Shown here piece by piece: positions 1,481-34,034 of a stretch of DNA of 57,871 nucleotides. Under the pieces are notes generated by a model. The model was not told where the DNA came from and searched no databases. It was given only the letters and a program-made list of their open reading frames with translations. Position 1 is the first letter of the stretch; the number at the start of each line of letters is the position of its first letter. This DNA comes from Candidatus Woesearchaeota archaeon (GTDB lineage: Archaea > Nanobdellota > Nanobdellia > Woesearchaeales > UBA11576). The stretch is from positions 1 through 57,871 of the forward strand of contig JAFGJH010000059.1 in the NCBI GenBank assembly GCA_016929255.1, given 5' to 3'. A program made the position numbers and the translations under genes.

Positions 1481-3082
1481 ATGACGGAAAAAGAGGCAAA
1501 GAAACAGACAAAACAGGAAAAGACACAGGAAACTAAACAGGAAAGGCCGATTCCAAAAGATGACCCTTCTAAATGCCTCAGCATAGATGACATGGCAGTA
1601 TTCTGCAAGAGGAAAGGATTTGTCTATCCAAGCTCTGAGATATACGGCGGGATGGCCGGATTCTTCGACTACGGCCCTTACGGCACAGAGCTAAAGAACA
1701 GCATCAAGAACGAATGGTGGAAGTCCCATGTCCAGTCACGCGAAGACATAGTGGGCATAGACGGCAGCATAATCTCAAACCCAAAAGTATGGGTCGCGTC
1801 AGGCCACGCAGAGCAGTTCGGAGACATACTAGTCGAGGATCTCAAGACACACGAAAGGCACAGGGCAGACGTGCTGATCGAGGAAGCGCTTAAGATACAG
1901 GCAGACGGCCTGTCTGCTGAGGACCTCGGCAAGCTGATCAAGGAGAACAATGTCAAGTCGCCCAAAGGCAACCCCCTGTCCGAACCCCGGAAGTTCAACC
2001 TCATGTTCACGACAAACGTCGGACCTGTCCAGAGCGAAGAGTCCAAGGCATACCTCAGGGCAGAGACAGCACAGATAATATTCGCGGAGTTCAAGAACGT
2101 ATTCGAGACATCAAGGCTCAAGCTGCCTTTCGGCATAGCCCAGATGGGGAAGGCGTTCAGGAACGAGATAGCGCCCAGGCACTTCCTGTTCAGGTGCAGG
2201 GAATTCGAGCAGATGGAGATAGAGTACTTCATACACCCGAAGAAGCACGGCGAGTGCCCATACATCAGCGAGGTCATCGAAGAAAAACTGACGGTGTATT
2301 CTGCAGAGATGCAGGAGAAGAAGCAGGAAGCGAAGGAGATGACTGTCAAGGACGCGCTCGCCAAGAAAGTCCTCAAGAGCCCGTGGCACGCATACTGGCT
2401 CGCCACAGAACACAGGTGGTTCCTCGACCTCGGCGCCCAAAGGGAGCACTTCAGGATAAGGCAGCACAAGAAAGACGAGCTCGCACACTACTCAAGCGAC
2501 TGCTGGGACCTTGAGTACAGGTTTCCATGGGGCTGGAAAGAGCTTGAAGGCATAGCCGACCGTTCAGACTTCGACCTCAATCAACACTCAAAGCACAGCA
2601 AGAAAGACCTGAGCATATACGACGAGGAGACAAAAGAGAAAGTGGTCCCCCACGTGGTCGCAGAGCCAAGCCTCGGCGTGGACAGGAGCTTCCTGGTGTT
2701 CATGTTCGATGCATACGACGACGACAAGAAAAGAGGGAACATCGTCCTGCACCTGCACCCCAAGCTCGCTCCCATAAAGGCAGCGGTACTGCCTCTTGTC
2801 AATAAGCTCGAGGACAAGGCAAAAGAGGTCCACAACCTGCTCAAGAATGACCTGTCCTGCTTCTATGACCGCGCAGGAAGCATAGGTCGGAGATACGCAA
2901 GGATGGACGAGCTCGGCACGCCGTTCTGCATCACAATCGACTTCGACTCGCTGGAGAAGGAGGACGTCACGATAAGGGACAGGGAGACCACAGAACAGGC
3001 AAGGGTCAAGATAAATGACCTGAAGGAGACGCTCAGGAAGCTAGCCATAGGAGATATCCAGTTCAAGGATATCAAGAAATAG
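1481..3082 (+). CDS. glyS: Glycyl-tRNA synthetase, archaeal/eukaryotic alpha2 type
   Basis: 533-aa ORF. N-terminal FVYPSSEIYGGMAGFFDYGPYG signature, class II motif 2 (FRNEIAPRHFLFRCREFEQME), C-terminal anticodon-binding domain. Confidence 0.9.
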   Translation: MTEKEAKKQTKQEKTQETKQERPIPKDDPSKCLSIDDMAVFCKRKGFVYPSSEIYGGMAGFFDYGPYGTELKNSIKNEWWKSHVQSREDIVGIDGSIISNPKVWVASGHAEQFGDILVEDLKTHERHRADVLIEEALKIQADGLSAEDLGKLIKENNVKSPKGNPLSEPRKFNLMFTTNVGPVQSEESKAYLRAETAQIIFAEFKNVFETSRLKLPFGIAQMGKAFRNEIAPRHFLFRCREFEQMEIEYFIHPKKHGECPYISEVIEEKLTVYSAEMQEKKQEAKEMTVKDALAKKVLKSPWHAYWLATEHRWFLDLGAQREHFRIRQHKKDELAHYSSDCWDLEYRFPWGWKELEGIADRSDFDLNQHSKHSKKDLSIYDEETKEKVVPHVVAEPSLGVDRSFLVFMFDAYDDDKKRGNIVLHLHPKLAPIKAAVLPLVNKLEDKAKEVHNLLKNDLSCFYDRAGSIGRRYARMDELGTPFCITIDFDSLEKEDVTIRDRETTEQARVKINDLKETLRKLAIGDIQFKDIKK

Positions 3083-3116
3083 AAAAAAATAGAACAGGCC
3101 GACCAAAGGAAAAAAG

Positions 3117-4163
3117 ATGGAAAAAACAGGTGAAAAAGCCAAGTCCTTCATCACGCACTCAGTGTTCATAATCATAGTAATCCTCGGGCTTTACTTCATC
3201 GTCACAGCATCGCCCACACTCACAGGATACGCGGTCCTCGACGCGAGCACTGCAAAAGCAAAGCTCGAAAGCGCTCTGTCAGGCTCCGCGATGTTCAGCC
3301 AGATAGCCCAGTCGAGCATCTGCGTGGTCATAAACGACCCCGAACAGCCACTTTCGCTGCAGGCTGCCAAGACAAGCACAGGATGGACTGTATCCGAGAT
3401 GAAAGGGATGTGCGCAGGCTTCACGTCAGAGGATGTCATAATACAGTTCCCTGACTACGATTCATTCTCAAAGATGGTGGATGACCCGTCTCCGCGGAAC
3501 CTTGCCAACGGAGCGATAAACCAGGACTTCCAGATACTTCAGTCAAGGTATGTCGAGCTGGGAGGCAACGTGGTCTGCGACGCAGCGTTCAGGGTCAAGT
3601 ACTGCGAAGCCCTCAAGAGCATGGCAACAACGAACCAGCTCATAGACGGCGACCTCGCATGCTGCCTTGACAAGCTCACAAGGGCAGAGAAGAAGCTCCT
3701 CGAAGAGCACCTCAATCAAGGCAACTATGAAGATGAGATGGGTGTCCTCCAGCAGCCCACGACAATAGCAGGCATGAGCATGACCACAAGCATCATAATA
3801 CTCGCCGCAGTAATCCTGGTCATCGTCGGCATAGTCGCAGGGGTCATGATGGGACACAAAGGAGGCAAGGCCCCTTCGACGACAGCTGCTCCGATGCCCA
3901 CTATGCCTGCTATGCCTGCAGGAATGCCTGCGGGAGCAGAGGCGGCGGGGGCCGCGATGCCAGAGGTGCAGGCAGGATACAGCCGGCCAGCACAGCCTAC
4001 AGAAAGCCCGCAGATAACCGACCTCAGGAACTATGTTGCGCAGGTGATTTCAGAAGGGTATGACCTTGAAGAGATAAGGTCACACCTCATCGAGATAGGC
4101 TGGGACTACCAGACAGCAGAGCAGATAATAGGAGATGCGCAGCAGCAGCTGCAGCAGCAGTAG
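3117..4163 (+). CDS. Membrane protein, function unknown
   Basis: 348-aa ORF with N-terminal signal-anchor helix, second TM helix (IIILAAVILVIVGIVAGVMM), Pro/Ala/Met-rich linker (PMPTMPAMPAGMPAG) and a short C-terminal helical domain. Confidence 0.6.
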   Translation: MEKTGEKAKSFITHSVFIIIVILGLYFIVTASPTLTGYAVLDASTAKAKLESALSGSAMFSQIAQSSICVVINDPEQPLSLQAAKTSTGWTVSEMKGMCAGFTSEDVIIQFPDYDSFSKMVDDPSPRNLANGAINQDFQILQSRYVELGGNVVCDAAFRVKYCEALKSMATTNQLIDGDLACCLDKLTRAEKKLLEEHLNQGNYEDEMGVLQQPTTIAGMSMTTSIIILAAVILVIVGIVAGVMMGHKGGKAPSTTAAPMPTMPAMPAGMPAGAEAAGAAMPEVQAGYSRPAQPTESPQITDLRNYVAQVISEGYDLEEIRSHLIEIGWDYQTAEQIIGDAQQQLQQQ

Positions 4164-8909: not shown

Positions 8910-9650
8910 ATGAAATCGCTAATATTCGACGCTGGACCTGTAATAAGCCTCACGACCAACAACCTCCTCTGGACACTGGACTGCCTGAAGGAGATGTTCA
9001 AGGGAGAGTTCTATATACCGCGGGCAGTCAAGGCAGAGCTGGTCGACCGACCCCTTGCGTCGAAGAAGTTCAAGTTCGAGGCCCTGCAGGTGGGCTTCAG
9101 GATAAAGAACGGCGTGCTGACCGTGCTGGACGAGCAGAAGATGAGGATGCTCGCAGAAGAGCTCCTTGAGCTTGCCAACCACTCATTCAAGGTCAGGGGC
9201 AACTGGCTGAAGATTGCCCATTACGCAGAGATGGAAGTCCTCGCGGCTGCATCAATCCTCAATGCCTCGGCAGTCGTGATTGACGAGAGGACGACAAAGC
9301 TCCTTATCGAAGACCAGTCAGGGCTTGCCCGGATGCTCGAGAAGAACATGGGTTCGAAGGTATACACTGACCAGGCCAACCTCAACAGGATAAAGAACTG
9401 GACAAGGGGAATCAAGGTCATAAGATCAGTGGAGCTCGTGATGGTGGCGTATGAGAAGGGCATATTCAACAAGTATCTCCCCGACGGAGAGGGCGCAGCA
9501 AGGACTCTTGTCGAGTCATTACTGTGGGGTGTGAAACTCCACGGATGCGCACTGTCCAGGCAGGAGCTCAACGACCTGGTCAGGATTGAGACAGGCAACA
9601 CCCTTAATCCAATAAATGAGGTTTCTCGTCAGGAAAAAGACAATCCTTGA
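8910..9650 (+). CDS. PIN-like nuclease domain protein (DUF3368/COG2405-like), enlarged
   Basis: 246 aa. N-terminal LIFDAGPVISL (first acidic residue), IPRAVKAEL, and AEMEVLAAASILNASAVVIDERTTKLL, matching the GE..A..LA......lliDDr..R pattern. Confidence 0.6.
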   Translation: MKSLIFDAGPVISLTTNNLLWTLDCLKEMFKGEFYIPRAVKAELVDRPLASKKFKFEALQVGFRIKNGVLTVLDEQKMRMLAEELLELANHSFKVRGNWLKIAHYAEMEVLAAASILNASAVVIDERTTKLLIEDQSGLARMLEKNMGSKVYTDQANLNRIKNWTRGIKVIRSVELVMVAYEKGIFNKYLPDGEGAARTLVESLLWGVKLHGCALSRQELNDLVRIETGNTLNPINEVSRQEKDNP

Positions 9651-9738: not shown

Positions 9739-10086
9739 ATGGCGCAAAAAGTTGCAAAAGTAGGTGTCAAGAAACAGGCAGGGTACCTCTACTTCGTCGA
9801 CAGACATGGCGACGTATCCTGTGCAAAGATGGCCCGCGGCAAGGGAAAGAAGGCCGGCGCTGTCAAGAAAGTCGCCAAGGTCGGCGTCAAGAAGAAGGGT
9901 GGTTTCCTCTACTTCATCGACAAGCAGGGTGACATATCCTGTGCGAAGATGGTAAGAGGCGGATCCAAGAGGAAGAAGGCCAAGAAAAAGGTCGCCAAGA
10001 AGAAGGCCAAGAAAAAGGTCGCCAAGAAGAAGGCCAAGAAAAAGGTCGCCAAGAAGAAGGCCAAGAAAAAGGCGAAGAAGAAGTAA
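9739..10086 (+). CDS. Small lysine-rich protein with two 39-aa repeats and an H1-like KKAKKK tail (candidate nucleic-acid-binding protein)
   Basis: 115 aa. Strong SD AAGGAGGT. Repeat VAKVGVKK.(A/G)G(Y/F)LYF(V/I)D..GD(V/I)SCAKM(A/V)RG occurs twice, then (KKVAKKKAKK)n encoded by a 24-nt tandem DNA repeat at about 9967-10075. Confidence 0.65.
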   Translation: MAQKVAKVGVKKQAGYLYFVDRHGDVSCAKMARGKGKKAGAVKKVAKVGVKKKGGFLYFIDKQGDISCAKMVRGGSKRKKAKKKVAKKKAKKKVAKKKAKKKVAKKKAKKKAKKK

Positions 10087-10181: not shown

Positions 10182-11714
10182 ATGATAAAAGGACAGGTGG
10201 TGGGAGGAGAGCTCGGGAAGGTATGCATAAGGCAGAAGGCCGACGCCTGCCTCGAGATAGGCGAGCTCCTTGTAAGCGGCGACGACAGGCAGAAGATACT
10301 CCTCCAGGTGTATGACCTCAACTACGGAAGCCAGATATCACAGCAGAACCTGGAGCTCATATCAGGCATGAAGCTTGAAGACAACACAGACATATCGTTC
10401 TTTGACGGCAATGTGCGCAACTACACCCTTGCCTCGGCGAAGCCCATAGCCATAATACGCGGCACAGATGTCCAGCTATGCAAGCAGCTGCCCCTGTTCT
10501 TCGGCGAGCTCAGGCAGGTCGAAGAGGCAGACCTGGACTTTATGGTCACTCCACCCAACCCTCTGTTCCTCGGCAACCTCAGGTCCGGATCAAAGATGAT
10601 GGATGTGCCGATAAGCATCCCCGGTGACAAGGTATTCTCGCACCATGTGCTCATAACATCGACGACAGGCAGAGGCAAGAGCAACCTCGTCAAGGTCATG
10701 CTCTGGAGCGCAGTCGACAAGGGATATTGCGGAGTTATTGTTCTAGATCCGCACGACGAATACTACGGCAGGAACGGACCAGGGCTGAAGACGCACCCTT
10801 CCTCCGGAAACGTGATATACTATACACCGAGGGACGCTCCGCCAGGAGCAAAGACACTCAAGATAAACCTCAAGCAGGTGAAGCCAGACCATTTCAGGGG
10901 CGCAGTTAACTTCTCCGACGCGCAGGTCCAGGCGATGAGCGCATACTACAAGGAGTACGGCAAGAAATGGGTAGAGGCAGTCGTGCTCGAGAAGCCTCTC
11001 AAGGTAGAGTTCCAGGAAGCCACAGTGGGGGTTCTCAAGAGAAGGCTCATGCACCTGCTTGACCTAGACTTCGACGGGAGCCAGCTATACTGCAACGGCG
11101 TGTTCGACCTCAGCGCAGGAGAGACCACCATAAAGGACATCGCAGGCGAGGCAGAGCAGGCCAAGACAGTCATAATAGACACATCAGGATTCTCAGGAGC
11201 AGTCGAGATAATGATAGGCAGCATGGTCACGACAGAGATATTCAACAGGTACAGGGGCTATAAGGCAAAAGGCCAGTTCGACAGCAGGCCGGTGGTCTCA
11301 ATTGTGCTCGAGGAGGCGCCCCGCGTGCTCGGAAAAGAGGTGCTGGAGTCAGGCGCCAACATATTCAGCACAATCGCCCGCGAGGGAAGGAAGTTCAAAG
11401 TGGGGTTGACAGCCATAACGCAGCTGCCTTCTCTCATACCCCGCGAGGTGCTCGCGAACATTAACACAAAGATAATACTGGGCATAGAGATGAAGCCCGA
11501 ACGTCAGGCCATAATCGAATCAGCATCGCAGGACCTGTCCACAGACGACAGGAACATAGCATCGCTCGACAAGGGAGAGGCGATAGTCACGAGCAACTTC
11601 GTAAAGTTCGCCACGCCCATAAAAGTCCCTCTTTTCACGCAGCATATAAAGAAAAGCCAAAAAGATAATAAACCAGAGAGACATCCGAGCTTCGAGGGAG
11701 TCAGGCTGACCTGA
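10182..11714 (+). CDS. HerA-like ATPase (HerA/FtsK superfamily, DUF87-type) with N-terminal barrel domain
   Basis: 510 aa. Walker [11 protein letters not shown], Walker B-like [30 protein letters not shown] motif. Confidence 0.8.
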
Positions 11715-11744: not shown

Positions 11745-12557
11745 GTGATCAAGCTGGGAATATACTCAGAACAAAAGAACTTCAGGAAGAACCTTGAATC
11801 AGCGTTCCCTCTCGCGAAGAGGGCTGCAGGCGAGGCAGGGCAGCTTGATGTCAAGATATTCCTAAAATTCCTGAAAAAGCACAAGCTTTTCGGGGAGTCG
11901 CTGAAGCAGGAGATTGCAGAGATATATGACCTGCTCCACGAGTCATGGGAGCTGGCCGAGGAAATCCGCAATAAGCCTGAGCACGAGAAGGAGTTTGATA
12001 GGCTGAACAAGATAACGTACGAGCTCGAGACCAAGAACACTGACCTGCTGAACAAGCTGGATGCAGGCAAGCATATGATATTGCAGATGGGGAAGAACCT
12101 CAGGATGTTCTACAATGACGAGCTCAAGATACTTTCGCTCCTGAAAGAATTCAATGAAGGACTGCATCGCGAAGGCAAATTGAAGCAGGTGCCCCATGCG
12201 ACCCAGCTGGTCAATGAGGCCACCAATATACAGGGCGCGCTGCACCAGATAAAGCCACTTTTCGAGGCAATAGCCACTGCCTATGAGAAGGACTCGATAG
12301 AGATCGGAAAGATGATAGAGGAAGAGATGAGGAAGGTGGAGTACAAGGTCAGGGGAAATGATGCGCAGCATATAGACTTCAGGAAGATACTTGAGCATGT
12401 CAAGTATGTGGAAGGCCAGATTGACAAGCTCATAGAAAAGGCTGAAAAGGAGCAGAAACTGGCAAATGTCAGCCAGCGAAGTGCCAGGATGATGGAAATA
12501 CTGATAGGCAAGATGCTGGAAAGGGAAGAACAGCAGAGAGAGCGCTTCAGGGCCTGA
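11745..12557 (+). CDS. Hypothetical all-alpha/coiled-coil protein
   Basis: 270-aa ORF (GTG start) 30 nt after the HerA-like gene. Codon usage matches its neighbours. No recognisable motif. Confidence 0.5.
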   Translation: MIKLGIYSEQKNFRKNLESAFPLAKRAAGEAGQLDVKIFLKFLKKHKLFGESLKQEIAEIYDLLHESWELAEEIRNKPEHEKEFDRLNKITYELETKNTDLLNKLDAGKHMILQMGKNLRMFYNDELKILSLLKEFNEGLHREGKLKQVPHATQLVNEATNIQGALHQIKPLFEAIATAYEKDSIEIGKMIEEEMRKVEYKVRGNDAQHIDFRKILEHVKYVEGQIDKLIEKAEKEQKLANVSQRSARMMEILIGKMLEREEQQRERFRA

Positions 12558-12586
12558 AACGCTATTTAATACACTTCTGAACCATA

Positions 12587-12598
12587 ATATTTATATAG
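12587..12598 (+). promoter_or_regulatory. TATA box
   Basis: ATATTTATATAG lies about 26 nt upstream of the ATG at 12624. Confidence 0.45.
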
Positions 12599-12623
12599 TT
12601 TTAATGACTAACTAGTGGTTACT

Positions 12624-13106
12624 ATGGGTGGGATAGACCACATAACAGTCAGGTTCTCGGAAATTGAGCTTGGTGGCAGCGAGCTAGAGCTCTCCCTTGA
12701 GAAAGAGGTGTGGGATTCTGTGGAAGGCACCCCCAACGAACATGTCGAATGGCATGTATATTATGTCCGGGCGTATAAAGCCGGTGAGATGACAGAAGAG
12801 CCTGCAAGGATGAAGGCAGAGATAGGACGTACATTGTACTCACGCGAGACCCTGCCGCCCAGACCCTGCTATACAGAAGGCGACACACAGGTAATCGTAA
12901 ACTTCCTGCTTCTCCTGGCACACCTGAAAGGGAACGGAGCCAGAGCGACAGTATCTTCAGACAGCACAGGTCTTTTCGAATCATTGGGCACTCTCGAAGG
13001 ATTCAGCGCAGACAACATCCTCAATTTGTGCGCAAGCAGGAACCGCCATACATTCACCGGAGTCGGCATGCATAACAGCTATCCGCCGCCACTTACAGAG
13101 CACTGA
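12624..13106 (+). CDS. Hypothetical protein
   Basis: 160-aa ORF from the ATG at 12624 (the track ORF begins at the GTG at 12615). No recognisable motif. Confidence 0.4.
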   Translation: MGGIDHITVRFSEIELGGSELELSLEKEVWDSVEGTPNEHVEWHVYYVRAYKAGEMTEEPARMKAEIGRTLYSRETLPPRPCYTEGDTQVIVNFLLLLAHLKGNGARATVSSDSTGLFESLGTLEGFSADNILNLCASRNRHTFTGVGMHNSYPPPLTEH

Positions 13107-13210
13107 GCCATTTTCTTCTTGAATCTTCCATCAGCCAGGCAAGACTAAAAAACAAAAGCTTAAAATATACCGCTCGGCTGCATCAACCCAATAAACCAAA
13201 GAAGGTGAGC

Positions 13211-14143
13211 ATGTTGATGAGCGAAAGAGGGATGCAAAGAGAATTCGCGGATCTTGAACAGAGCATACTTCTGATTGACCATTCCATGAGCGGCGTCATG
13301 GAACACGCCAGCAAGAGCAGCGACGATGAGACCCTCCGCTTTGCCAGGGCACTGCATTTCTTCTTCAGGAACAGGTCAAAATTCCTGAAGAATCTCGCAT
13401 CCGCGGCAAAGAAAGTCAACCAGCAGGAGCTGATTGATGAGAAGGCTGACCAGGAACTCCTGTCGCTCCTGAATGAAGCGGAAAGCGGCCACAGGTTCTC
13501 TCCGTCCGAAGTGGCGGCGAAACTCGAGAAATCATTCGACCTCTTCAGGCATGTCATGAGGATGCAGGTCATATACCACATATCAGACCAGATAGGCAGG
13601 ACAAGGTTCAATGTAGCAAGGCCGATAAAGATACGGACAGAGCTCCTGGAGAAGATGCGCAGCATCTTCAGTATGACTGGCTTCGAGAGGATGCTGACCT
13701 CTGACAACCGCGCCAGGCTTAGGAACGTATTGACTAAGCTAATTGAGAAACGCTACCCTGACCTCCTCAAGTTCTCAAACGAACTTGACCAGAAGGTCGC
13801 CTACTACAACTTCAGGTTCCAGGAGATGTACAACATACTCTGCACAATGCATATGTTCAAAGAGCCTGAAACAAAGAAAGGGTTCTGGGCAGCAGTCTTC
13901 GGCACCCAAAAAAAGAGCCCGCAGCTGCTCACGTTGACCCCTGCACAGAAGAAGAGCGACATCGAGAGGGTCCGAGTGAGCCTTCACAAGAGGATTGGCG
14001 AACTGCACAGATCATTTGAGGATATCAAGACTGCGCGCGACAGTACCGAGAGGGAGATGCAGCAGATCAAAGAAGACGAGGCAGAGCTGAGAGGCATCTT
14101 TAAAAAATGCTTTATAGGGAGAGATTTGAGGCGTTTAAGGTGA
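13211..14143 (+). CDS. Hypothetical coiled-coil protein
   Basis: About 310-aa ORF. GAAGGTGA precedes ATGs at 13211 and 13217, so the start is ambiguous. No recognisable motif. Confidence 0.5.
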   Translation: MLMSERGMQREFADLEQSILLIDHSMSGVMEHASKSSDDETLRFARALHFFFRNRSKFLKNLASAAKKVNQQELIDEKADQELLSLLNEAESGHRFSPSEVAAKLEKSFDLFRHVMRMQVIYHISDQIGRTRFNVARPIKIRTELLEKMRSIFSMTGFERMLTSDNRARLRNVLTKLIEKRYPDLLKFSNELDQKVAYYNFRFQEMYNILCTMHMFKEPETKKGFWAAVFGTQKKSPQLLTLTPAQKKSDIERVRVSLHKRIGELHRSFEDIKTARDSTEREMQQIKEDEAELRGIFKKCFIGRDLRRLR

Positions 14144-14347
14144 TTCTTGGCTTTTAAACCACCATTTTCTTTTTATCTCTTGAATTTTTTGCTTTTTCTT
14201 CCATTTGGGCGGTTTTAAACCTTTTTTTGTCTAATTTTGCTGTTTAAACGGCTTTTTTTGCTTTGTTTTTTTTGGAAAAAATATATAAACTCGTTATGTT
14301 TTATCACTAAATCGTAATAACAATGTAGGAACGATGTAAGGGCGCTT

Positions 14348-14986
14348 TTGTGTCCTAAATTGCCGGGGGGATGCAGTTTGTTCAGCGGAAGTTCAGCAAG
14401 AAGAATTGAAGAACAGATAGATGAGATCCAGAAGCTCGCAGACATCGAGTTCGTGCTGCGCTTCCACCGCGAGACCATCGGACCCAACGGTCTTGTCGAC
14501 CATCTTTATCTGGACCTTTCAGACAACATAAAGAGCGACCCTGAACGGCCTGCTCTTGTTGAGGCCCTCAGAAAGGCGATCAGATGCGATGAGTTCTATC
14601 AATCGATAGATTACATCGCTTTAGACATCAAAAACCGAAGAACATCAAAAACTGATTTCTACAAGGCAGTCGACTTTGCCGCCACCACTCAAAACAGGCA
14701 TGTTGACGGCCAAAAAACAAAACGGATATTCGTAGCCAGCATCAGTGACGTGACCAGGGTCGCCGGAAAGATCCTGGAGCATGTGGCATACATTGAGAGG
14801 AACGAGTTCCTGCTCCCGATGATAGTAAGCGTAGACGGTCTTGATTACTTCCATAATTCTGCCAAGGACGGCTCTTTTGTTGAACCTCAGTTCAGGCCTT
14901 CATTCTACAGCACATTCTACCGAGAGACGCACGGCTTCAGGGAGTGGGTTGAAGCGACGGCAAGAATGATGAGTTTTTTTCATTAA
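14348..14986 (+). CDS. Hypothetical protein
   Basis: 212-aa ORF with only TTG in-frame starts near the 5' end. TATA AAATATATAAA at about 14279-14290. No recognisable motif. Confidence 0.4.
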   Translation: MCPKLPGGCSLFSGSSARRIEEQIDEIQKLADIEFVLRFHRETIGPNGLVDHLYLDLSDNIKSDPERPALVEALRKAIRCDEFYQSIDYIALDIKNRRTSKTDFYKAVDFAATTQNRHVDGQKTKRIFVASISDVTRVAGKILEHVAYIERNEFLLPMIVSVDGLDYFHNSAKDGSFVEPQFRPSFYSTFYRETHGFREWVEATARMMSFFH

Positions 14987-15200: not shown

Positions 15201-17918
15201 ATGCGCAGGTTCGAAAAAGAGGAGATGGGACAAAGGTCAAAGATAGTGGCCCTTTGCCACAGCATATACCAGCTGTTCAACGAGAAGAGGAAAGAGCTGG
15301 CAGTTGACTGGAAGGAAGAGTTCAACAAAGGAGGGGTCGAGAGGGTCGAACAGCTCTTCAACAGGACCCTGGAAGTCGTCTACCAGCAGATAAGTGCAGT
15401 CTCTCAGCTATCAGAGCTCATAAGACAGCAGGACGCAGAAGTGAGGAAATCTGCAGGAAGGCTCGGCAAGCACCTGGACTACGCATCATTGGTCAAATCA
15501 CACTTCTCATTCGCGACAATAGCCGGCGAGATGATCAAGAAAGAAGAGCTTGACACAGAGAAACTCCTTGAACTTCTCCGGAAGCTGTTCTTTGACCTCA
15601 GCGAACAGAAAAAGAAGCTTGATTCTGTGAAAAAACAGGGTGCGGGAAAGCAGGCATATGCTGAAGTTGATATCAGGAGCCTGGCACAGACCGAGTTTAA
15701 GATACTGCAGAGCATAACACCGTTCTGGAACGAATGGGAGACCCTTGTCCCGAAGATAGAAGCCTTGGTATCCAACATAGGCCAGGCCAGCGAGGAGGAC
15801 CTGGATAGACTGAAGAAAGACATCAGGAAACTTCTTGACTCGTACCACAAGAGCTTCGCCAATGACGAACAGGCATCACAGCTCGGCACAGAGCTCGCGC
15901 TGAACCTCGCGATCAACGATACAAAAGAGATGGATGCTCTCGGAGGGAAAGTCCCCGTAGCAATAGTCAACGTCGACATGACTGCATGCAACTCCCTTGA
16001 CACGTCCCACAAACTCGGCGACGCGCTTATACAGACAGCATATAAAGAGCTTGACCGCAGGCTCAGGAGGGAGTTCACGATAATCGAACAGTACGAGCGG
16101 AAGGGGATCATAGACGGCAAGGGTGTCGTGACCATCCTCGGAAGGACAAGGCTGAAGATAGTCGGCATAGGCAAGAAGGAGATAGAAGACGCGCTGAAAG
16201 AGGTGCCCCCTATAGTCCGCAAACAGCTTGTAGACACTTTCAGCGGACAGTTCCAAGGCGCAGACCTTCAATCCCTCAAGAACCTCAACACCCGCCTGCT
16301 GGCAGGATACCATGAGCTGGATGTCGGAAATGAGCGCAGGCAGTTCGTCTACAAGCTCGTTTATTTCAAACTGACCTCAGAAGGCTATCTGAAGGATATC
16401 ATCCAGCCCTACACCGGAGAGCTCGACGCAAAGGTAGAAAGAGAGAGTGCGCTCGCAGAGCTGAAGGAACTCGAGAAGCAGATTGCACAGAAGATAGACG
16501 ACGCGATAAAGCACGCAGCGGCAAAGGCAGAGTATCTGGAGAAGATGTTCCTCCCTGACTACGAGGGCAGGAAACTGGGCGAGCTCAAGAAAAGGATGGA
16601 AGAGGAGCACATACCGCCTGTGGAGACCCCTGTATTCGTACAGAGGATAAACGCCATCGAAAGGGAGGTGCTGGCAGATTTCCCTGCTGTAGTCATCTAC
16701 GACGGGAAGTTCGAGCCGAAGTCAGCCTGGATAGGCCTCAACTACATACCAGAGGAGGAGTTCGAAGGAAAGATGATAAACAGGGTCGCGCACCAGATAG
16801 GGCTGGACAACCACCTGGCAGAAGAGCTGTTAAGGCTGTTCCATGAATGCCGGCAGAAGAGAAAGGACGGCAAGCTGGAGCCGGAAGACGCGAAAAAGCT
16901 CCACGAGCTCAAAGAGAAATTCTATCTTGACGTGCTGCAGAAGAGACACCTCGCAAAGAGCTATGACCTCAGGTTCCCCGCCTCACTGCGCGAGGACTCG
17001 TTCGACCAGGTGCTCGCGGCGATGACGCTCATAGAGGGCCCGCAGGTCATGACGTTCTTCGAGTTGGACGGGTTCAACGCATTCAACAAGCTGTACAGGC
17101 CAGACAAGCAGGACACATACTACCATTCCGTTCTGAAGATGATGCTGACGCATTTCGACGAGGTCTTCAATGAGGGGGTCGCCGAGCAGTACGCGATAAA
17201 GCCCAGGATGGTCAAGCAGGGCGACGAGATATGGATCAGCTATCCCCTGACTTCAGAGAGGGGAAAAGTGTCCGAGAAGGAGCACATGAAGTTCCTCGAA
17301 AGGGTCAGGAGATCGCTCGTGAGCCTCTCTCTCGGCGAAGCCCTCAAAGTTCCGAACCAGAGGACGATAGACTGGATACCCCTGCGCATAGACAACAAAA
17401 TTCTCCTGCATCTTCACCTGCAGAACTGCTTCAGGAAGTCGAAGCAGGTTTTCTATGTCGACAACAGCAAATTCACTCACGACCGTCCGCAGTCAGAGAA
17501 GCACATAGAGGTAACTCCCCTGAACCAAGAGGGGCTCTTCGGCAGTTATTTCACTATGGTCAGGATAATCGGCGCGAACAAGAAAGAGGACTTCACAGAC
17601 TGGAAGTCCATCAGTCCCGCGAGGGAGGTGACTGGAGATGGGGATTTCGGGCCAGAAAAATTCATTTTCTCATCGATGCTGTTCGAAGAGACCGTCAAAC
17701 TGCTTTCAGACGGCGCGTCAAGCAGGCTGAAGACAGGAAGGGTCATAAGGCTGGGCACCACCGCAGGATATGCCGGGTTCAGCAGGCCTCTGATGCCAAC
17801 AGCACCCAAAGAATCGGAACTGATAAGGGGCAGGCTGAACGAGGCAGTCGAGAAGATGCGCCATAGGAAAGGCCGCGGCGGGATATACAACCTTGAGAAG
17901 GAAGGTTTCGCTTTTTGA
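15201..17918 (+). CDS. Large (905 aa) orphan protein with coiled-coil regions and two divergent nucleotide-cyclase/GGDEF-like palm signatures
   Basis: aa 253-320: VAIVNVDMTACNSLDTSHKLGDALIQTAYKEL. aa 616-680: VMTFFELDGFNAFNKLY...VKQGDEIWISYP. The second aligns by eye to the class III cyclase core in this window (MTVMFSDLRGFTAMSEKL...KFVGDEIMALFG). Confidence 0.55.
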   Translation: MRRFEKEEMGQRSKIVALCHSIYQLFNEKRKELAVDWKEEFNKGGVERVEQLFNRTLEVVYQQISAVSQLSELIRQQDAEVRKSAGRLGKHLDYASLVKSHFSFATIAGEMIKKEELDTEKLLELLRKLFFDLSEQKKKLDSVKKQGAGKQAYAEVDIRSLAQTEFKILQSITPFWNEWETLVPKIEALVSNIGQASEEDLDRLKKDIRKLLDSYHKSFANDEQASQLGTELALNLAINDTKEMDALGGKVPVAIVNVDMTACNSLDTSHKLGDALIQTAYKELDRRLRREFTIIEQYERKGIIDGKGVVTILGRTRLKIVGIGKKEIEDALKEVPPIVRKQLVDTFSGQFQGADLQSLKNLNTRLLAGYHELDVGNERRQFVYKLVYFKLTSEGYLKDIIQPYTGELDAKVERESALAELKELEKQIAQKIDDAIKHAAAKAEYLEKMFLPDYEGRKLGELKKRMEEEHIPPVETPVFVQRINAIEREVLADFPAVVIYDGKFEPKSAWIGLNYIPEEEFEGKMINRVAHQIGLDNHLAEELLRLFHECRQKRKDGKLEPEDAKKLHELKEKFYLDVLQKRHLAKSYDLRFPASLREDSFDQVLAAMTLIEGPQVMTFFELDGFNAFNKLYRPDKQDTYYHSVLKMMLTHFDEVFNEGVAEQYAIKPRMVKQGDEIWISYPLTSERGKVSEKEHMKFLERVRRSLVSLSLGEALKVPNQRTIDWIPLRIDNKILLHLHLQNCFRKSKQVFYVDNSKFTHDRPQSEKHIEVTPLNQEGLFGSYFTMVRIIGANKKEDFTDWKSISPAREVTGDGDFGPEKFIFSSMLFEETVKLLSDGASSRLKTGRVIRLGTTAGYAGFSRPLMPTAPKESELIRGRLNEAVEKMRHRKGRGGIYNLEKEGFAF

Positions 17919-18275: not shown

Positions 18276-18752
18276 TCAATAGCACCTGGAATCATGCGCA
18301 GTGGTGTCAGCAAGGCCCACGATACGCCTATGGTTGCCGTGCTTCTCTGCGCAGTCCTGGCGAAGGCCTTTGACCAGCGTGTAGACCGCTTCTATCTTCT
18401 GGTCAAGGGGTGAGCGGTCCTTGTCCGCAATCTTCCTGCAACGCGAATAGAGCGCGCCGCATCTGCCATGCTCCTCCTCAAGCAGATCTTCTGACCAGTC
18501 ATATCTGCTCAACGGAGAGGCCTGCCTGAAAAGGAGTTCCATCTGGTCGAGGCTTGCGAATGTCTCTGGAAGCTGGAACGTGTCTTTCTCACGCTTGATC
18601 CTTGCCTGCTCATAATTGTTGAGCATGTACTTCAGCACAATCAGTGCTTCGATATATGTGGAAGAATCAGCGATATCTTTCGGGCGGAGTATAGCTTCAT
18701 AAAGCTTTTCAGCAAGTCCTGCATCATGTTTTGCATCTTTGTCAGCAGTCAT
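18276..18752 (-). CDS. Hypothetical protein
   Basis: 158-aa ORF divergent from mre11. No recognisable motif. Confidence 0.4.
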   Translation of the reverse strand: MTADKDAKHDAGLAEKLYEAILRPKDIADSSTYIEALIVLKYMLNNYEQARIKREKDTFQLPETFASLDQMELLFRQASPLSRYDWSEDLLEEEHGRCGALYSRCRKIADKDRSPLDQKIEAVYTLVKGLRQDCAEKHGNHRRIVGLADTTAHDSRCY

Positions 18753-18880: not shown

Positions 18881-20095
18881 ATGAAATTCGCCCATATCGC
18901 AGACGTGCACCTCGGAAGCTGGAGAGAGCCTAAGCTGAGAGAGCTCAACGCCAGGGCATTTGTTGAGGCGGTCAGCAGATGCCTGTCCAAGCGGGTAGAT
19001 TTCGTTCTCCTGGCAGGAGACCTGTTCAACACGAGCATACCTTCTATCGAAAGCCTCAAGCTTGCAGTGACTGAACTTAAGAGGCTGAAGGACGCAGGCA
19101 TACCTGTCTACACAATCGCAGGAAGCCATGACTTCTCTCCATCAGGGAAGACCATGCTTGAAGTGCTTGAAGAGGCAGAACTGCTGAAGAATGTCTGCAA
19201 AGGGGAGGTGGCTGATGGAAAGCTCAAGCTGCACTTCACAACAGACAGGAAGACAGGAGCGAAGATAACAGGCATGATAGGGAAGAAAGGCATGCTGGAA
19301 AAGAAATACTACGGAGACCTTATGCATCAGAACCTCGAACAGGAGCAAGGGTTCAGGATATTCATGTTCCACACAGCGCTGTCAGAGCTCAAGCCAGAGT
19401 ATATGGAGCATATGGAAGCCGCACCGCTCTCGTTGCTGCCGAAGGGATTTGACTATTATGCGGGCGGGCATGTGCATATCGTAAAAGAGGCGAGCATATC
19501 AGAATACAGGAACATAGTCTATCCCGGCCCGACATTCCCTAACAGCTACACAGAGCTGGAAAAGCTCGGGTGCGGTGGTTTCTACATCTATGATGGCAGC
19601 AGCGACAGCAGGCTTGTCTATGAGCGAATCGAGCTCTGCCCCGTGGTTCCCATAAGCATCGACTGCATGCACAAGACTCCCCAGCAGTCCACAGAAGACA
19701 TCCTCGACGCGCTTGCCGGCAAGGAGATGAAAGACGCGATAGTCCTCCTCAGGCTGGCCGGAAGGCTAGAGACAGGAAAGACATCAGAAGTAGATATCAA
19801 AATGGCGACAGATATCATGCACGAGAGGGGGGCGTGCTTTGTGATGAAGAACACCACTAAGCTCGTGTCAAAGGAGTTTGAAGAGGTCAAGGTGAAGGCA
19901 GACACTACAGAGGAGGCAGAGAGGCTCGTCGTCGAAGAGCATGTCGGGCAGGTCAAGTCTCTTGAGCTGACACCTGAAGCAGAGAAGGGTCTTGTTCATC
20001 AGCTCATGACGGTCCTTGACAAGGAGAAAGAGGAAGGCGAGAGGCAGTCAGACTACGAGGCAAGGATAATAGCAGAGATGGAGAAGATATTCTGA
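18881..20095 (+). CDS. mre11: Mre11 DNA double-strand-break repair nuclease (calcineurin-like phosphoesterase)
   Basis: 404 aa. Phosphoesterase motifs HIADVHLG, LLAGDLFN, AGSHD, GGHVH. No rad50-like gene adjacent. Confidence 0.85.
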   Translation: MKFAHIADVHLGSWREPKLRELNARAFVEAVSRCLSKRVDFVLLAGDLFNTSIPSIESLKLAVTELKRLKDAGIPVYTIAGSHDFSPSGKTMLEVLEEAELLKNVCKGEVADGKLKLHFTTDRKTGAKITGMIGKKGMLEKKYYGDLMHQNLEQEQGFRIFMFHTALSELKPEYMEHMEAAPLSLLPKGFDYYAGGHVHIVKEASISEYRNIVYPGPTFPNSYTELEKLGCGGFYIYDGSSDSRLVYERIELCPVVPISIDCMHKTPQQSTEDILDALAGKEMKDAIVLLRLAGRLETGKTSEVDIKMATDIMHERGACFVMKNTTKLVSKEFEEVKVKADTTEEAERLVVEEHVGQVKSLELTPEAEKGLVHQLMTVLDKEKEEGERQSDYEARIIAEMEKIF

Positions 20096-29450: not shown

Positions 29451-30005
29451 ATGGTAAGCACGTTTAGAGGTGTATTAGAATTTTTTGTCAGGTTGGGAAT
29501 CTATGATGTAGTCCTCCCTTTCCTTCTTGTTTTCACCATCGTGTTCGCGATAATGGAGAAAAGCAAGGTCTTCGGCACAGAGAAGACGAGCCATGGGGAG
29601 TTCACAAGGAAGAACCTGAATGCAATGGTGGCGTTCGTGGTCGCGTTCCTGGTCGTAGCATCATCAAGGCTTGTAGCAGTAATAAACGAGACAATGGCCA
29701 ACATGGTCCTTCTCCTGATAATGAGCGTCTGCTTCCTGATACTCATCGGAAGCTTCATGAAGGAGACCAGGGAAGGTGTATTCCTCCAGGGAGGATGGGC
29801 AACGTTCTTCATGATTATCATGTTCGTAGGAATAGTCCTCATATTCACCAACGCTCTCGGCTGGCTCGAGCCTGCCTGGAACTGGCTCCTCCAGCACTAT
29901 GACAGCACAGTGGTCGCGTCCATACTCCTCGTGGCAGCGATGGTCGGGTTTGTCTACTGGATAATAAAGGAGCCCAAGAGAGAGGAGACAAAGTCAGAAT
30001 CATGA
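29451..30005 (+). CDS. Polytopic membrane protein, paralog 1 of 3
   Basis: 184 aa, about 4-5 TM helices. Shared motif DVVLPFLLVFTIVFAIMEKSKVFG and C-terminal YWIIKEPK. Confidence 0.6.
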   Translation: MVSTFRGVLEFFVRLGIYDVVLPFLLVFTIVFAIMEKSKVFGTEKTSHGEFTRKNLNAMVAFVVAFLVVASSRLVAVINETMANMVLLLIMSVCFLILIGSFMKETREGVFLQGGWATFFMIIMFVGIVLIFTNALGWLEPAWNWLLQHYDSTVVASILLVAAMVGFVYWIIKEPKREETKSES

Positions 30006-30082
30006 CCTTTAACTATATTGAGGCAACTTAAATCAACAAACAAAAAAACAAAGACTAACACTCAAAAAAGGAGGTTTAAAAA

Positions 30083-30724
30083 ATGGCATATCCTTACGCT
30101 ACTGGTTACGGAAGCGGCGGCGGTTATTTCTACAATATAATCCAGAGGCTTGAGATGTGGGGCCTCTCCGACGTCATCCTGCCGTTCATCCTCATCTTCA
30201 CCATCGTATTCGCGATAATGCAGAAGGTGAAGCCGCTGGGTGAAGGCACAGCCCAGAACAAATCTTTCAATGTGGTCATCTCGCTCGTGATGGCCCTGGC
30301 AGTGGTGATACCGCATGTCCTGGGATATTACCCTCCGGGAGCTGACATAGTCAACATCATAAATGCGGCACTGCCACAGGTCTCAATAGTTCTCGTCGCG
30401 ATACTCATGGTCCTGCTTATCGTCGGGCTTTTCGGCGGCAAAGCGACATGGGGAGGGGCGCTCTCAGGCTGGATAGCATTCTTTGCATTCATCCTGGTAG
30501 TCTACATCTTCGGAAGGGCCGCAGGATGGTTCTACTACCTGCCTAACTGGCTCTACTGGCTGGACAACCCTGACACGCAGGCGATGCTGGTCGTCATCGC
30601 GATATTCGCGATAATCATCTGGTACATCACCAAGGAGCCGAAGGAACCAGGGGCAGCGACCAGCCTCGACAAGTTCAGGGACTCCTGGGGGGAGCTTTTC
30701 AGCGGCGGCAAAAGCAGCAAGTGA
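30083..30724 (+). CDS. Polytopic membrane protein, paralog 2 of 3
   Basis: 213 aa. DVILPFILIFTIVFAIMQKVKPLG and IWYITKEPK. SD GGAGGT. Confidence 0.6.
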   Translation: MAYPYATGYGSGGGYFYNIIQRLEMWGLSDVILPFILIFTIVFAIMQKVKPLGEGTAQNKSFNVVISLVMALAVVIPHVLGYYPPGADIVNIINAALPQVSIVLVAILMVLLIVGLFGGKATWGGALSGWIAFFAFILVVYIFGRAAGWFYYLPNWLYWLDNPDTQAMLVVIAIFAIIIWYITKEPKEPGAATSLDKFRDSWGELFSGGKSSK

Positions 30725-30794
30725 CCAAATAATCTTTCATTTTTTTTAAAATTTCACATCAGCTTTCACAAAGTACTGGCAAAAGAGGTAAACA

Positions 30795-31382
30795 ATGGCG
30801 ACATTTTTGGACATAGGGCTGGCACAGCACTTCTCAGTGATATTCCCTGTACTCCTCGTGTTCGTCATCATATTCGCCCTGCTCGAGAAATCCAAGGCGC
30901 TTGGCGATAACAAAGGGCTGCATTCCCTTATAGCACTGTGCATAGCAATAATGCTCCTTTTCGTCCCAGGAGTCATCCAGGTCATAGGATACATGGCGCC
31001 GTGGTTTGTGCTGATCTTCCTCCTGGTATTCTTCTTCTTCCTGCTGCTCCTGGCTTTCGGTACGCCTTGGGACAAGATAGTGGGGGTCGCAGGCAGCTGG
31101 GGGACACCACATTGGTTCCTGCTCGTCATAGGGCTCATAATATTTGTAGGCGCACTCGGCCATGTATACGGCCAGGCGATGCTCCCTTACTCGAATGAGG
31201 GTGCAGAGAGCGCAGCGACAAATGCCACAGAATCAGGTGTGCCTGCAGAGACATCAACAGATACCGGCGACTTCAACAGCAACGTAGGAAGGGTGATATT
31301 CCACCCAAAGACACTGGGAATGGTCCTTCTTCTCATGATAGGTTCTCTTGCCATAAAACTTCTGGCTTCAGCGCCGAAATAA
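30795..31382 (+). CDS. Polytopic membrane protein, paralog 3 of 3
   Basis: 195 aa. VIFPVLLVFVIIFALLEKSKALG. Divergent C-terminal half. Confidence 0.6.
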   Translation: MATFLDIGLAQHFSVIFPVLLVFVIIFALLEKSKALGDNKGLHSLIALCIAIMLLFVPGVIQVIGYMAPWFVLIFLLVFFFFLLLLAFGTPWDKIVGVAGSWGTPHWFLLVIGLIIFVGALGHVYGQAMLPYSNEGAESAATNATESGVPAETSTDTGDFNSNVGRVIFHPKTLGMVLLLMIGSLAIKLLASAPK

Positions 31383-34004: not shown

Positions 34005-34034
34005 GGCGGCCCAGAAGAAAAAGTGCCTGCCAGC

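Follow-up and report, generated by a model that had tools for sequence, protein, structure and literature searches.

A putative tandem GGDEF-like protein family in DPANN archaea, with one degenerate and one acid-bearing palm

Diguanylate cyclases of the GGDEF family (PF00990) synthesise cyclic di-GMP (c-di-GMP) when two GTP-loaded GGDEF domains meet. In PleD numbering, the Mg2+ ligands are D327 and E370, the guanine-reading residues N335 and D344, and the phosphate-holding residues K442 and R446; E371 is essential. Degenerate GGDEF domains serve as receptors or regulators, for example in PelD and GdpP. The cyclase/GGDEF/Cas10 palm group also includes Cas10 (Cmr2/Csm1), the cyclic-oligoadenylate synthase of type III CRISPR systems, which carries two palms in one chain with an acidic hairpin only in the second, the class III adenylyl and guanylyl cyclases, and the minimal CRISPR polymerase mCpol, which acts outside CRISPR and makes nucleotide signals. 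The last of these is small, has a single palm and is encoded alongside an effector in the Panoptes defence operon (PMC12657218). Signalling by c-di-GMP and its GGDEF enzymes is considered an essentially bacterial trait, and curated censuses find it almost absent from archaea (PMC5847659, PMC8646023). Here we describe a 905-residue protein, termed X, from a 57,871-nucleotide stretch of DNA of a Candidatus Woesearchaeota archaeon (contig JAFGJH010000059.1, positions 1-57,871, assembly GCA_016929255.1; the whole stretch is referred to as the window), which is chromosomal DNA of a DPANN archaeon:

15201-17918, + strand: gene for protein X (905 residues), a divergent tandem GGDEF-like protein; intact open reading frame

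The original prediction had noted two palm signatures between 15948 and 17300, which corresponds to residues 250-700 of X. This observation is confirmed, since translation places the quoted peptides at the residues given for them: VAIVNVDMTACNSLDTSHKLGD at 253-274, TILGRTRLKIV at 311-321, VMTFFELDGFNAFNKLYRPDK at 616-636 and VKQGDEIWISYP at 671-682. X itself has no match in Pfam or NCBIfam at E up to 10, none in PADLOC and none by phmmer against all PDB sequences. Profile comparison and structure prediction nevertheless support the view that both regions are GGDEF-type palm domains, albeit very divergent ones. From the N-terminus, the protein comprises a helical domain (residues 1-225), palm 1 (226-400), long helices, an acidic loop (512-536), further helices, and palm 2 (586-708), which resumes at 846-905 after an insertion. 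The two palms have no detectable similarity to each other, and there is no sign of internal duplication (hhalign P 0.49 and 0.36).

A word-index search of 5.8 billion proteins recovered eight homologues, each of about 900 residues and 43-75% identical to X, and a second search of the same kind with the family profile gave zero additional members. When 1.84 billion cluster representatives were searched exhaustively with HMMER, only ten proteins were returned at E <= 0.001, which contributed four further full-length members (34-44% identical), one fragment, three giant proteins and one spurious match to a leucine-rich repeat (LRR) protein. The latter, the NACHT-LRR protein P0016, matches only residues 474-514, in 11 repeats, and was rejected as an LRR-like chance match. 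There are thus about 13 full-length Woesearchaeota/Nanoarchaeota proteins, of 862-991 residues, together with three giant proteins that carry the same cassette. When one genome for each of 185,579 species was scanned, five loci were found, all in metagenome-assembled genomes (MAGs) of Woesearchaeota/Nanoarchaeota type (one of them labelled Methanosarcinales), and a metagenome scan gave three loci. IMG/VR holds no relative of X, hence we see no sign of a viral or mobile origin for the family. The nearest homologues come from Nanoarchaeota and Woesearchaeota MAGs, and one homologue bears the Joint Genome Institute name "GGDEF domain-containing protein". The family is conserved, real and very rare, forming a narrow DPANN group plus a few giant proteins. 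Conservation was assessed in an alignment of 9 sequences and in one of 14 (13 full-length members and the giant protein P0015), with identities of 34-75%; the motif residues discussed below are invariant or nearly invariant in the first and then in the second.

The first of the two regions and its motifs are as follows:

15876-16400, + strand: palm 1, residues 226-400, degenerate GGDEF-like domain (AlphaFold2, Foldseek, hhalign)
15969-15977, + strand: N257-V-D259, strand beta1 of palm 1, with Asn in place of Asp at the first metal position (translation)
16005-16022, + strand: S269-H270-K-L-G273-D274, counterpart of the GGDEF G-H-x-x-G-D motif (hhalign; spacing from N-x-D as in GGDEF)
16140-16166, + strand: G314-R-T-R-L-K-I-V-G322 hairpin, degenerate GG[DE]EF site in which R-T-R replaces the acids (hhalign)

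Modelled alone with AlphaFold2 (AF2; residues 222-462, 14 sequences), palm 1 gives a confident structure (mean pLDDT 86.7, pTM 0.83) with the order strand-helix-helix-strand-strand-helix-strand. In a Foldseek search of the PDB the best match is the GGDEF structure 4URQ (probability 1.00, E 1e-4), and the further top matches are 4URG, 6TTS, 5XGE, the degenerate GGDEF domain of LapD (3PJW), DosC and SadC. These GGDEF matches have probabilities of 0.90-1.00, and Cas10/Csm1, Cmr2, Thg1 and GTP cyclohydrolase III appear at lower probability. GGDEF structures thus come first. The sequence profile of palm 1 is marginal against a GGDEF profile built from six experimentally named E. coli K-12 diguanylate cyclases (DgcJ, DgcP, DgcZ, DgcC, DgcN and DosC), with an hhalign score of 20.0 and P 0.027 that 2 of 60 shuffles reach, and a PDB profile search with this region yielded nothing relevant. 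The register of the hhalign alignment is nonetheless as expected: D-x-D is paired with N257-V-D259, G-H-x-x-G-D with S-H-K-L-G-D, G-G-D-E-F with G-R-T-R-L, and the "S-I-G-V-A" strand with L-L-A-G-Y.

Within these motifs D259 is invariant, and position 257 holds Asn in each of the 13 full-length members but Ser in P0015. S269, H270 and G273 are invariant among 9 sequences and nearly so among 14, and D274, at the position of the guanine-reading Asp, is either D or N in the larger alignment. The 9-sequence alignment shows no variation at G314, R315, T316, K319, I320 or G322, and G-R-T-R-[FLY] stands in for the second acidic motif across the homologues. On the model and the alignments, palm 1 is a GGDEF-like palm that has no metal ligands and possesses an invariant motif of its own, G-R-T-R-x-K-I-V-G. 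The description of the first region as GGDEF-like with a degenerate second acidic motif is thereby borne out.

The second region is interrupted, and its parts are arranged as follows:

16956-17324, + strand: N-terminal part of palm 2, residues 586-708, with strand beta1, two helices, the G-D-E hairpin and helix alpha3 (hhalign, AF2)
17061-17087, + strand: E621-L-D623-G-F625-N-A-F-N629, counterpart of D-x-D-x-F-K-x-x-N (metal strand and base-contacting Asn; hhalign)
17112-17114, + strand: D638, which occupies the site of the guanine-contacting Asp in G-H-x-x-G-D (invariant in 14 sequences)
17214-17231, + strand: K672-Q-G674-D675-E676-I677, equivalent of the GG[DE]EF hairpin, in which both acids are retained (hhalign)
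17325-17735, + strand: insertion of about 137 residues within palm 2, residues 709-845 (hhalign, conservation)
17736-17918, + strand: C-terminal part of palm 2, residues 846-905, ending at the stop codon (hhalign, AF2)

The homology of palm 2 to GGDEF enzymes is carried by profile comparison. The natural sequence of residues 585-905, as a family profile of 14 sequences, matches the GGDEF profile with P 0.0033. With the insertion removed, a single alignment of 135 columns covers the whole GGDEF domain (probability 80%, P 1.4e-5, score 39.9); the natural-sequence values are the conservative ones, because the boundaries of the deletion were chosen after the alignments had been seen. None of 60 column shuffles of palm 2 reaches the score of 39.9 (mean 14.3, standard deviation 2.9, maximum 24.5; z about 9). 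As controls, the reversed sequence gives P 0.68 against GGDEF, and P values of 0.25-0.62 are obtained for three other parts of X (N-terminal domain, linker and insertion), the insertion showing no similarity to GGDEF (P 0.33). A PDB profile search with residues 585-770 returned only three sequences, all of the Thermotoga maritima diguanylate cyclase (4URQ, 4URG and 4URS, E about 0.5), and these align on E-L-D-G-F-N-A-F-N...D-T-Y-Y-H.

Each motif keeps an identical register in the PDB profile search and the hhalign alignments. E621 and D623 lie on D-x-D, F625 on F, N629 on N and D638 on the D of G-H-x-x-G-D, with Q-G-D-E-I on G-G-D-E-F; the block E621-N629 is aligned to D-M-D-K-L-K-Q-I-N of DgcJ, and the spacing from N629 to D638 is that of the GGDEF consensus. 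All 14 sequences share residues E621, D623, G624, F625, A627, F628, N629, D638, G674, D675 and E676, with Q-G-D-E in the 13 full-length members and K-G-D-E-F in P0015. The acidic residues, which had been described as retained in this region, are accordingly conserved among homologues (E621, D623, D675 and E676), with the qualification that the first metal position is Glu and not Asp.

The C-terminal part contains the strand R-L-G-T-T-A-G-Y-A-G-F followed by the helix L-N-E-A-V-E-K-M-R-H-R-K-G-R-G-G, and in a separate hhalign alignment residues 850-892 are placed on the "S-I-G-V-A ... A-D-x-A-L-Y-x-A-K-x-x-G-R-N" end of the GGDEF domain. Since the N-terminal and C-terminal parts align with GGDEF separately, palm 2 is split by the insertion of about 137 residues. 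Its extent consequently differs from the original proposal: the region around residues 616-680 does appear to be a palm, but the domain continues past residue 680 or so and resumes at 846-905. In the C-terminal part G846, R847, R850, G852, T854, G856, Y857, R887, K890, G891, R892 and G893 are invariant among 9 sequences. The insertion likewise contains many invariant residues, several of them Arg (N719, T722, W725, H739, N742, N755, W801, K802, R808, G812, F816, E830, T831, K833, S840 and R842 among 9 sequences), and its AF2 pLDDT is mostly below 50. For the N-terminal part AF2 places strands at 615-623, 669-673 and 676-682 and helices at 625-631, 640-657 and 692-707, and for the C-terminal part strands at 852-858 and 895-897 and a helix at 869-890 (pLDDT 70-83). 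The beta-alpha-alpha-beta-beta-alpha-beta order is thus predicted at both regions, and palm 2 agrees with GGDEF both in secondary-structure order (in the full model) and in the domain-wide hhalign alignment. The fold of palm 1, the profile homology of palm 2 to GGDEF, the conservation of the motif residues and the rarity of the family are all directly supported by these results.

It could be argued that the resemblance is one of motifs by chance and that neither region is a palm domain. No curated hidden Markov model recognises X, the palm 1 profile is reached by two of its 60 shuffles, and the alignment of palm 2 to a class III cyclase encoded in the same window is not significant (P 0.18). 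We consider this explanation very improbable, because the palm 1 model with its GGDEF top matches, the palm 2 profile score and the PDB profile that yields only diguanylate cyclases agree independently, and every motif falls in the same register in all of these alignments.

Three giant proteins carry the cassette in contexts unrelated to those of X. P0017 (3803 residues) and P0018 (2554 residues) have the two-palm cassette at residues of about 2130-2520 and 1500-1820, respectively. In both, a K-x-G-D-E hairpin lies 19 residues ahead of the E-L-[DN]-K-F-N-A-F-N strand, whereas in X the hairpin follows about 50 residues after it, an arrangement that, judged from the sequences, resembles a permutation of strand and hairpin within the palm fold and would provide a clean example of one. 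P0018 also contains a GT4 glycosyltransferase domain, and its locus (L013) is a cluster of glycosyltransferase, radical-SAM and methyltransferase genes. P0015 (1977 residues) has a hydrophobic, signal-like segment at its N-terminus and a cassette in the normal order, with K-G-D-E-F.

Compared with characterised GGDEF enzymes, palm 1 shares the fold of T. maritima TM1788 (4URQ/4URG), Caulobacter crescentus DgcB (6TTS/6TTR) and E. coli DosC (4ZVF), and palm 2 shows domain-wide profile homology to this group. The likeness of palm 2 extends to the order and spacing of the strand acids, the F-x-x-x-N and x-x-x-D helix residues and the G-[DE]-E hairpin, and at the C-terminus to the "S-I-G-V-A"-like strand and the G-R motif; X also resembles these enzymes in having helices ahead of the catalytic domain. 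It differs from them in having tandem palms, the first without metal ligands, to which the Pfam model is blind, in the Glu for Asp, Asn for Lys and Q-G-D-E-I replacements and the conserved insertion of palm 2, in the lack of an I-site, and in its restriction to a narrow group of DPANN archaea and a few giant proteins. N629 and D638, which we take to be the equivalents of the guanine-reading N335 and D344 of PleD, align at the guanine-specifying positions with identical spacing and are invariant. At each aligned PleD position palm 2 has an acid or the same residue, save for Glu as the first ligand, Asn at the position of K332 and the Q-G-D-E-I signature.

We tentatively favour, as a possible reading of this conservation, that X is a GTP-using enzyme of the diguanylate cyclase type, in which a homodimer of palm 2 would make c-di-GMP or a related guanine-containing dinucleotide and palm 1 would be a regulatory pseudo-domain. 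The use of GTP, catalysis, dimerisation and the identity of the product are what we infer here. E621 and D623 on strand beta1, with D675 and E676 on the hairpin, would serve Mg2+ binding and catalysis, N629 and D638 would occupy the guanine-reading positions, and the basic C-terminal K-G-R-G motif would lie where phosphates are held, so that palm 2 could bind GTP-Mg2+ and form a 3'-5' bond. As in diguanylate cyclases that have a stalk, the long helices on either side of the palms may join two X chains, bringing together two palm-2 half-sites that would produce c-di-GMP or a closely related dinucleotide containing guanine. Palm 1 would most likely act as a non-catalytic domain that binds nucleotide or regulates, with the helical N-terminal domain as an input module.

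A number of points weigh against this interpretation. PF00990 does not match X or the 9 homologues of the first alignment at E up to 10 (nor P0011 and P0013 at E up to 0.05), and the boundaries of the insertion were picked for the best hhalign score after inspection of the alignments. The first metal position of palm 2 is Glu where Asp is canonical, N626 occupies the expected position of the phosphate-contacting Lys (Lys occurs only in P0012), and in Q-G-D-E-I the first Gly of GG[DE]EF has become Gln and the last residue Ile, a combination that we know from no characterised active enzyme. Palm 2 is seen only inside the full-length AF2 model, where parts of it have pLDDT below 50; that model (pLDDT 67, pTM 0.38, insertion wholly below 50) offers no basis for the relative placement of the palms. 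EAL, HD-GYP and PilZ domains were not found among the window open reading frames scanned. X evolves faster than its neighbours (34-48% identity, compared with 70-76% for HerA in the same loci), which would also fit relaxed constraint on a protein that is not an enzyme. Finally, c-di-GMP was not detected in Haloferax or Sulfolobus (PMC8646023), and a curated census found GGDEF essentially absent from archaea (PMC5847659), although BLAST gives more than 300 canonical GGDEF matches in archaeal data, many of them from Asgard and DPANN MAGs (PMC8646023).

Several of these observations would also fit a reading in which neither palm is catalytic and X is a scaffold or receptor that binds nucleotides or nucleic acid, in the manner of LapD, PelD or GdpP, possibly together with the HerA-type and Mre11-like proteins encoded on either side. 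The motif departures (Glu for Asp, Asn for Lys, Q-G-D-E-I for GG[DE]EF), the Asn found at the D623 position in P0018, the rapid evolution of X relative to its neighbours and the lack of any c-di-GMP turnover or effector gene seen in the window all agree with such a role, as do the presence of the degenerate LapD domain among the palm 1 matches and the recurrent place of X between HerA (6 of 8 loci) and Mre11-like (10 of 10) genes. Palm 1 indeed resembles LapD (3PJW) in having the fold without the catalytic acids. It differs from domains of the LapD type in that it lacks the R-x-x-D I-site, is paired with a second GGDEF-like palm instead of EAL or another output domain, and has a replacement motif, G-R-T-R-x-K-I-V-G, that is itself invariant. 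Neither palm has an R-x-x-D I-site ahead of the hairpin. Moreover, the four acids and the Asn/Asp pair of palm 2 are strictly invariant at 34-75% identity while their surroundings diverge, which is typical of a working active site, and a wholly non-catalytic X therefore seems to us unlikely.

A different question is whether the two palms act together within one chain. In the manner of Cas10 or the heterodimeric cyclases, palm 2 could supply the metals and the donor nucleoside triphosphate and the dead palm 1 could hold the acceptor, giving a linear dinucleotide (e.g. pppGpG) or, by repeated rounds, a linear or cyclic oligonucleotide in place of the c-di-GMP of a symmetric dimer. A degenerate and an acid-bearing palm in fixed order are consistent with this, the cassette recurring in P0015, P0017 and P0018, and palm 1 keeps S-H-x-x-G-D, from the nucleotide-contacting helix region of GGDEF, as well as the invariant R315 and T316. 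Over 758-806 columns the full-length model can also be aligned with adenylyl cyclase 9 and Cmr2, both of them two-palm proteins, and Cas10 chains are among the Foldseek matches of palm 1. However, these long alignments have TM-scores of about 0.12 in a model of pTM 0.38 that does not predict the placement of the palms, palm 1 scores better with GGDEF than with Cas10, and the palms lack detectable similarity to each other. Nor does the neighbourhood contain CARF or SAVED effectors, cas genes or a CRISPR array. On balance we doubt that X is an asymmetric single-chain synthase of this kind, and retain the palm-2 homodimer as the preferred model.

The original prediction had likened X to Cas10 and heterodimer-like cyclases. 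Its statement of one degenerate and one potentially active palm is supported, with an acidic hairpin only in the second palm (Q-G-D-E in X, where Cas10 has G-G-D-D), but the features that define membership of Cas10 are missing. X has no HD domain (no Pfam match) and no C-x-x-C zinc-finger motif of the inter-palm Cas10 kind, with 4 Cys in 905 residues; its C-terminus belongs to palm 2, whereas Cas10 has a C-terminal helical D4 domain; and palm 2 keeps the guanine-specifying Asn/Asp pair. Cas10 chains are only weak Foldseek matches for the full model and palm 1 (E 0.02-0.1, probability 0.3-0.7), ranked below GGDEF. The remark that there is no CRISPR or cas context was correct: no CRISPR array, CRISPR-like repeat or tRNA gene occurs in the window, and no cas families are found among the neighbours of X. 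A PADLOC match to Csm5 on the open reading frame at 11745-12557 (E 0.0013, 16.5 bits) is spurious, this frame being all-helical and rich in lysine and glutamate.

The class III cyclases, including the pseudo-heterodimeric C1-C2 enzymes (AC9, 7PDE), belong to the same palm superfamily as X, and a genuine example is encoded in the window, as had been stated. It lies at 37710-39344 on the minus strand and is a GAF-GAF-cyclase of 544 residues (Guanylate_cyc E 1e-34), so this DPANN genome also possesses conventional cyclic-nucleotide signalling. Its peptides at 38232-38264 and 38091-38126 had been aligned with residues 616-680 of X. The register of that alignment, with the F-x-[DE]-L-x-G-F and G-D-E-I strings in line, is reproduced by hhalign, but the match lacks significance (P 0.18, compared with 1.4e-5 for palm 2 against GGDEF). 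The GGDEF profile itself matches the window cyclase only with P 0.042, hence hhalign barely detects even the known superfamily link. X differs from the class III enzymes in its GGDEF-type "S-I-G-V-A...G-R-N"-like C-terminal segment and in having no Guanylate_cyc (PF00211) match. By profile and model comparison both palms resemble GGDEF more closely than they do Cas10 or the class III cyclases, and we file X as a new, very divergent branch of GGDEF because the cyclase match is insignificant and the Cas10 features are missing; one dead and one live palm is an analogy to Cas10 and the C1-C2 cyclases, not membership. mCpol, judged from its description, is set apart from X by size and context, since X has 905 residues and two palms, gives no PADLOC match and lies among housekeeping genes.

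The GGDEF palm superfamily itself is well known, and what profiles and models support as new is a very divergent tandem branch of it with a split second palm; no description of such a tandem GGDEF-like family was found in full-text literature searches. The family is invisible to Pfam and NCBIfam yet keeps what from its sequence is a plausible GTP-binding catalytic site, and it is fixed in a DPANN (Woesearchaeota/Nanoarchaeota) genome group. If X is active, guanine-based dinucleotide signalling would reach ultra-small, host-dependent archaea, and the pairing of one dead and one live GGDEF domain would offer a natural system for studying the evolution of asymmetric palm pairs such as those of Cas10 and mammalian adenylyl cyclases. 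If it is inactive, X would be one more pseudo-enzyme, of local interest only.

Outside the palms, three further conserved elements were recognised in X:

15201-15875, + strand: N-terminal all-helical domain, residues 1-225 (AF2 helices, pLDDT mostly 80-92)
16515-16544, + strand: A-A-A-K-A-E-Y-L-E-K motif in the long helix that follows palm 1 (near-invariant in the family)
16734-16808, + strand: acidic loop G-x-N-Y-I-P-E-E-E-F-E-G...R-x-x-H-Q-I-G-x-D, residues 512-536 (strong conservation)

Invariant residues of the N-terminal domain among 9 sequences include W37, K90-H91, H101-F102, G147/G149 and P174-F175-W176, and a sensor or dimerisation function is possible. In the homologues P0006 and P0007 the segment corresponding to residues 48-241 of X (window positions of about 15342-15923) gives 7TMR-HDED Pfam matches (E 2e-4 and 0.03) below the gathering score, which hints that the N-terminal domain may resemble a sensor-type helical module. 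The A-A-A-K-A-E-Y-L-E-K motif is recognisable in the giant proteins P0015, P0017 and P0018, and a reduced form of the acidic loop is present in the same three. In this loop G512, N514, Y515, P517, E518, E520, F521, E522, G523, R528, H531, G534 and D536 are invariant among 9 sequences, and AF2 confidence is below 50. Long helices are predicted ahead of palm 2 at 408-468, 523-553 and 561-589, and the coiled-coil-plus-GGDEF structure 6TTR is among the Foldseek matches. With the full-length model these matches belong mostly to the cyclase/GGDEF/Cas10 palm group: adenylyl cyclase 9 (top, E 3e-4), SiaD, Cmr2, DosC, DgcB and soluble guanylate cyclase. Against viral structures the full-length model gives nothing significant, and the match of highest probability is a phage diguanylate cyclase.

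The genes surrounding X are of a housekeeping kind (RFC-like AAA, aminoacyl-tRNA synthetases, MCM, OapB, SSB, TGT, CCA-adding enzyme, ThyX and SHMT). Three neighbours recur beside it:

10182-11714, + strand: HerA-type ATPase, upstream neighbour (DUF87 E 3e-24; HerA models in NCBIfam and PADLOC)
18276-18752, - strand: gene for a 157-residue protein, convergent with X and divergent from the Mre11-like gene; no family match
18881-20095, + strand: Mre11-like metallophosphoesterase (Metallophos E 3e-16; the best NCBIfam models are Mre11, E 3e-33, below the curated cut-off)

The Mre11-like gene is downstream of X in all ten related loci. HerA is upstream in six of the eight that cover this side, and is absent there in L010 and L011. 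The usual upstream genes in related loci are those for a HerA-type ATPase, a small basic protein, a PIN-like protein and a 186-residue protein, and downstream a NUDIX gene on the opposite strand comes next wherever the contig reaches far enough. By tblastn a counterpart of the 157-residue protein directly follows X in 8 of 10 related loci (25-71% identity), with minus-strand genes of 149 and 159 residues called at its position in L008 and L012; with the closest relative (L014) set aside its identity is 25-35%, which marks a fast-evolving gene. Across the same loci, and with the same exclusion, X is 34-48% identical, HerA 70-76% and Mre11 52-70%. The outer flanks vary, GatB following in L008 and the MCM-OapBC block being inverted in L012. 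As the neighbours are 50-95% identical between loci and the genomes are close relatives, the link of X to Mre11 and HerA is weak and serves as a lead only; synteny was rejected as proof of function, shared gene order being expected in close relatives.

This context raises the further alternative that palm 2 extends the 3' (or 5') ends of DNA or RNA, as a template-independent polymerase or a Thg1-like enzyme that acts in end processing with HerA and Mre11. The neighbours just described would suit such a nucleic-acid-directed nucleotidyltransferase, Thg1, Thg1-like proteins and poly(A) polymerase are among the weaker Foldseek matches, and invariant Arg and Lys residues are abundant in the conserved insertion. 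Nevertheless, GGDEF outranks Thg1 and polymerases in every search, the guanine-reading Asn/Asp pair of GGDEF is kept, the synteny comes from closely related genomes and is weak evidence for a functional link, and the cassette is also present in giant proteins whose gene contexts are unrelated, one of them a glycosyltransferase cluster. We regard this role as improbable, and continue to favour diguanylate cyclase-like activity. It is tempting to combine the context with the palm arrangement, such that X would be the first archaeal GGDEF-derived, single-chain asymmetric two-palm synthase, a parallel to Cas10 outside CRISPR that makes a guanine-containing linear or cyclic (oligo)nucleotide signal whose output is coupled to the HerA/Mre11-like end-processing genes, by analogy with DisA, the bacterial diadenylate cyclase through which DNA integrity is tied to c-di-AMP, and the permuted-hairpin cassette would be a signalling module in giant proteins from other uncultured microbes. 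This extended scheme is speculative and, taken as a whole, has in our view little chance of being correct.

The usual partners of Mre11 and HerA are Rad50 and NurA, respectively, and neither was found in the 58-kb window or beside Mre11 in any related locus. Because X is helix-rich, has about 900 residues and lies between HerA and Mre11, it was considered as a substitute for Rad50, but it has no Walker A/P-loop and no C-x-x-C zinc hook, and Rad50/MukB structures match with probabilities of 0.01-0.05; this candidate was rejected. Also conserved upstream of HerA is a PIN-like protein at 8910-9650 (DUF3368-like in the related loci), a possible nuclease partner of HerA. Just upstream of HerA is a very basic open reading frame of 115 residues (9739-10086, + strand) with no Pfam match, which contains two units of about 30 residues, K-V-A-K-V-G-V-K-K-x-x-G-[YF]-L-Y-F-[VI]-D-x-x-G-D-[VI]-S-C-A-K-M, and a lysine-rich tail derived from 4.3 copies of a 27-bp repeat (tandem repeat at 9972-10083). 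Its first 60 residues are 81-98% identical in 8 related loci, so it probably represents a small DNA-binding protein.

The junction between HerA and X (11745-14986, + strand) holds four uncharacterised, all-helical open reading frames of 270, 163, 312 and 212 residues. Elsewhere (L014 6498-7895, L002 158-1816, L021 about 2430-3773) its content differs: the closest relative has two open reading frames, homologues of the other two are present in one locus and several loci lack them altogether, so that the junction behaves like an insertion hot spot with variable cargo. Further along the window, a second HerA/DUF87-type ATPase (451 residues, 32162-33517, + strand) is located near a T2SSE-type secretion/pilus ATPase of 777 residues (34782-37115, + strand), with open reading frames that have no family match before and between them (29451-31382 and 34023-34677). 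A MoxR-type AAA ATPase followed by a VWA/DUF58 protein (43335-45567, + strand), a classic MoxR-VWA pair, lies downstream of a JAB-domain protein (42673-43230). Two unusual fusions related to nucleotide metabolism were also observed, one a 607-residue protein (51143-52966, + strand) in which the ThyX domain covers only residues 96-319, and the other a 389-residue protein (55984-57153, + strand) that joins an AAA_17/18 kinase-like domain to a dCMP/cytidine deaminase domain.

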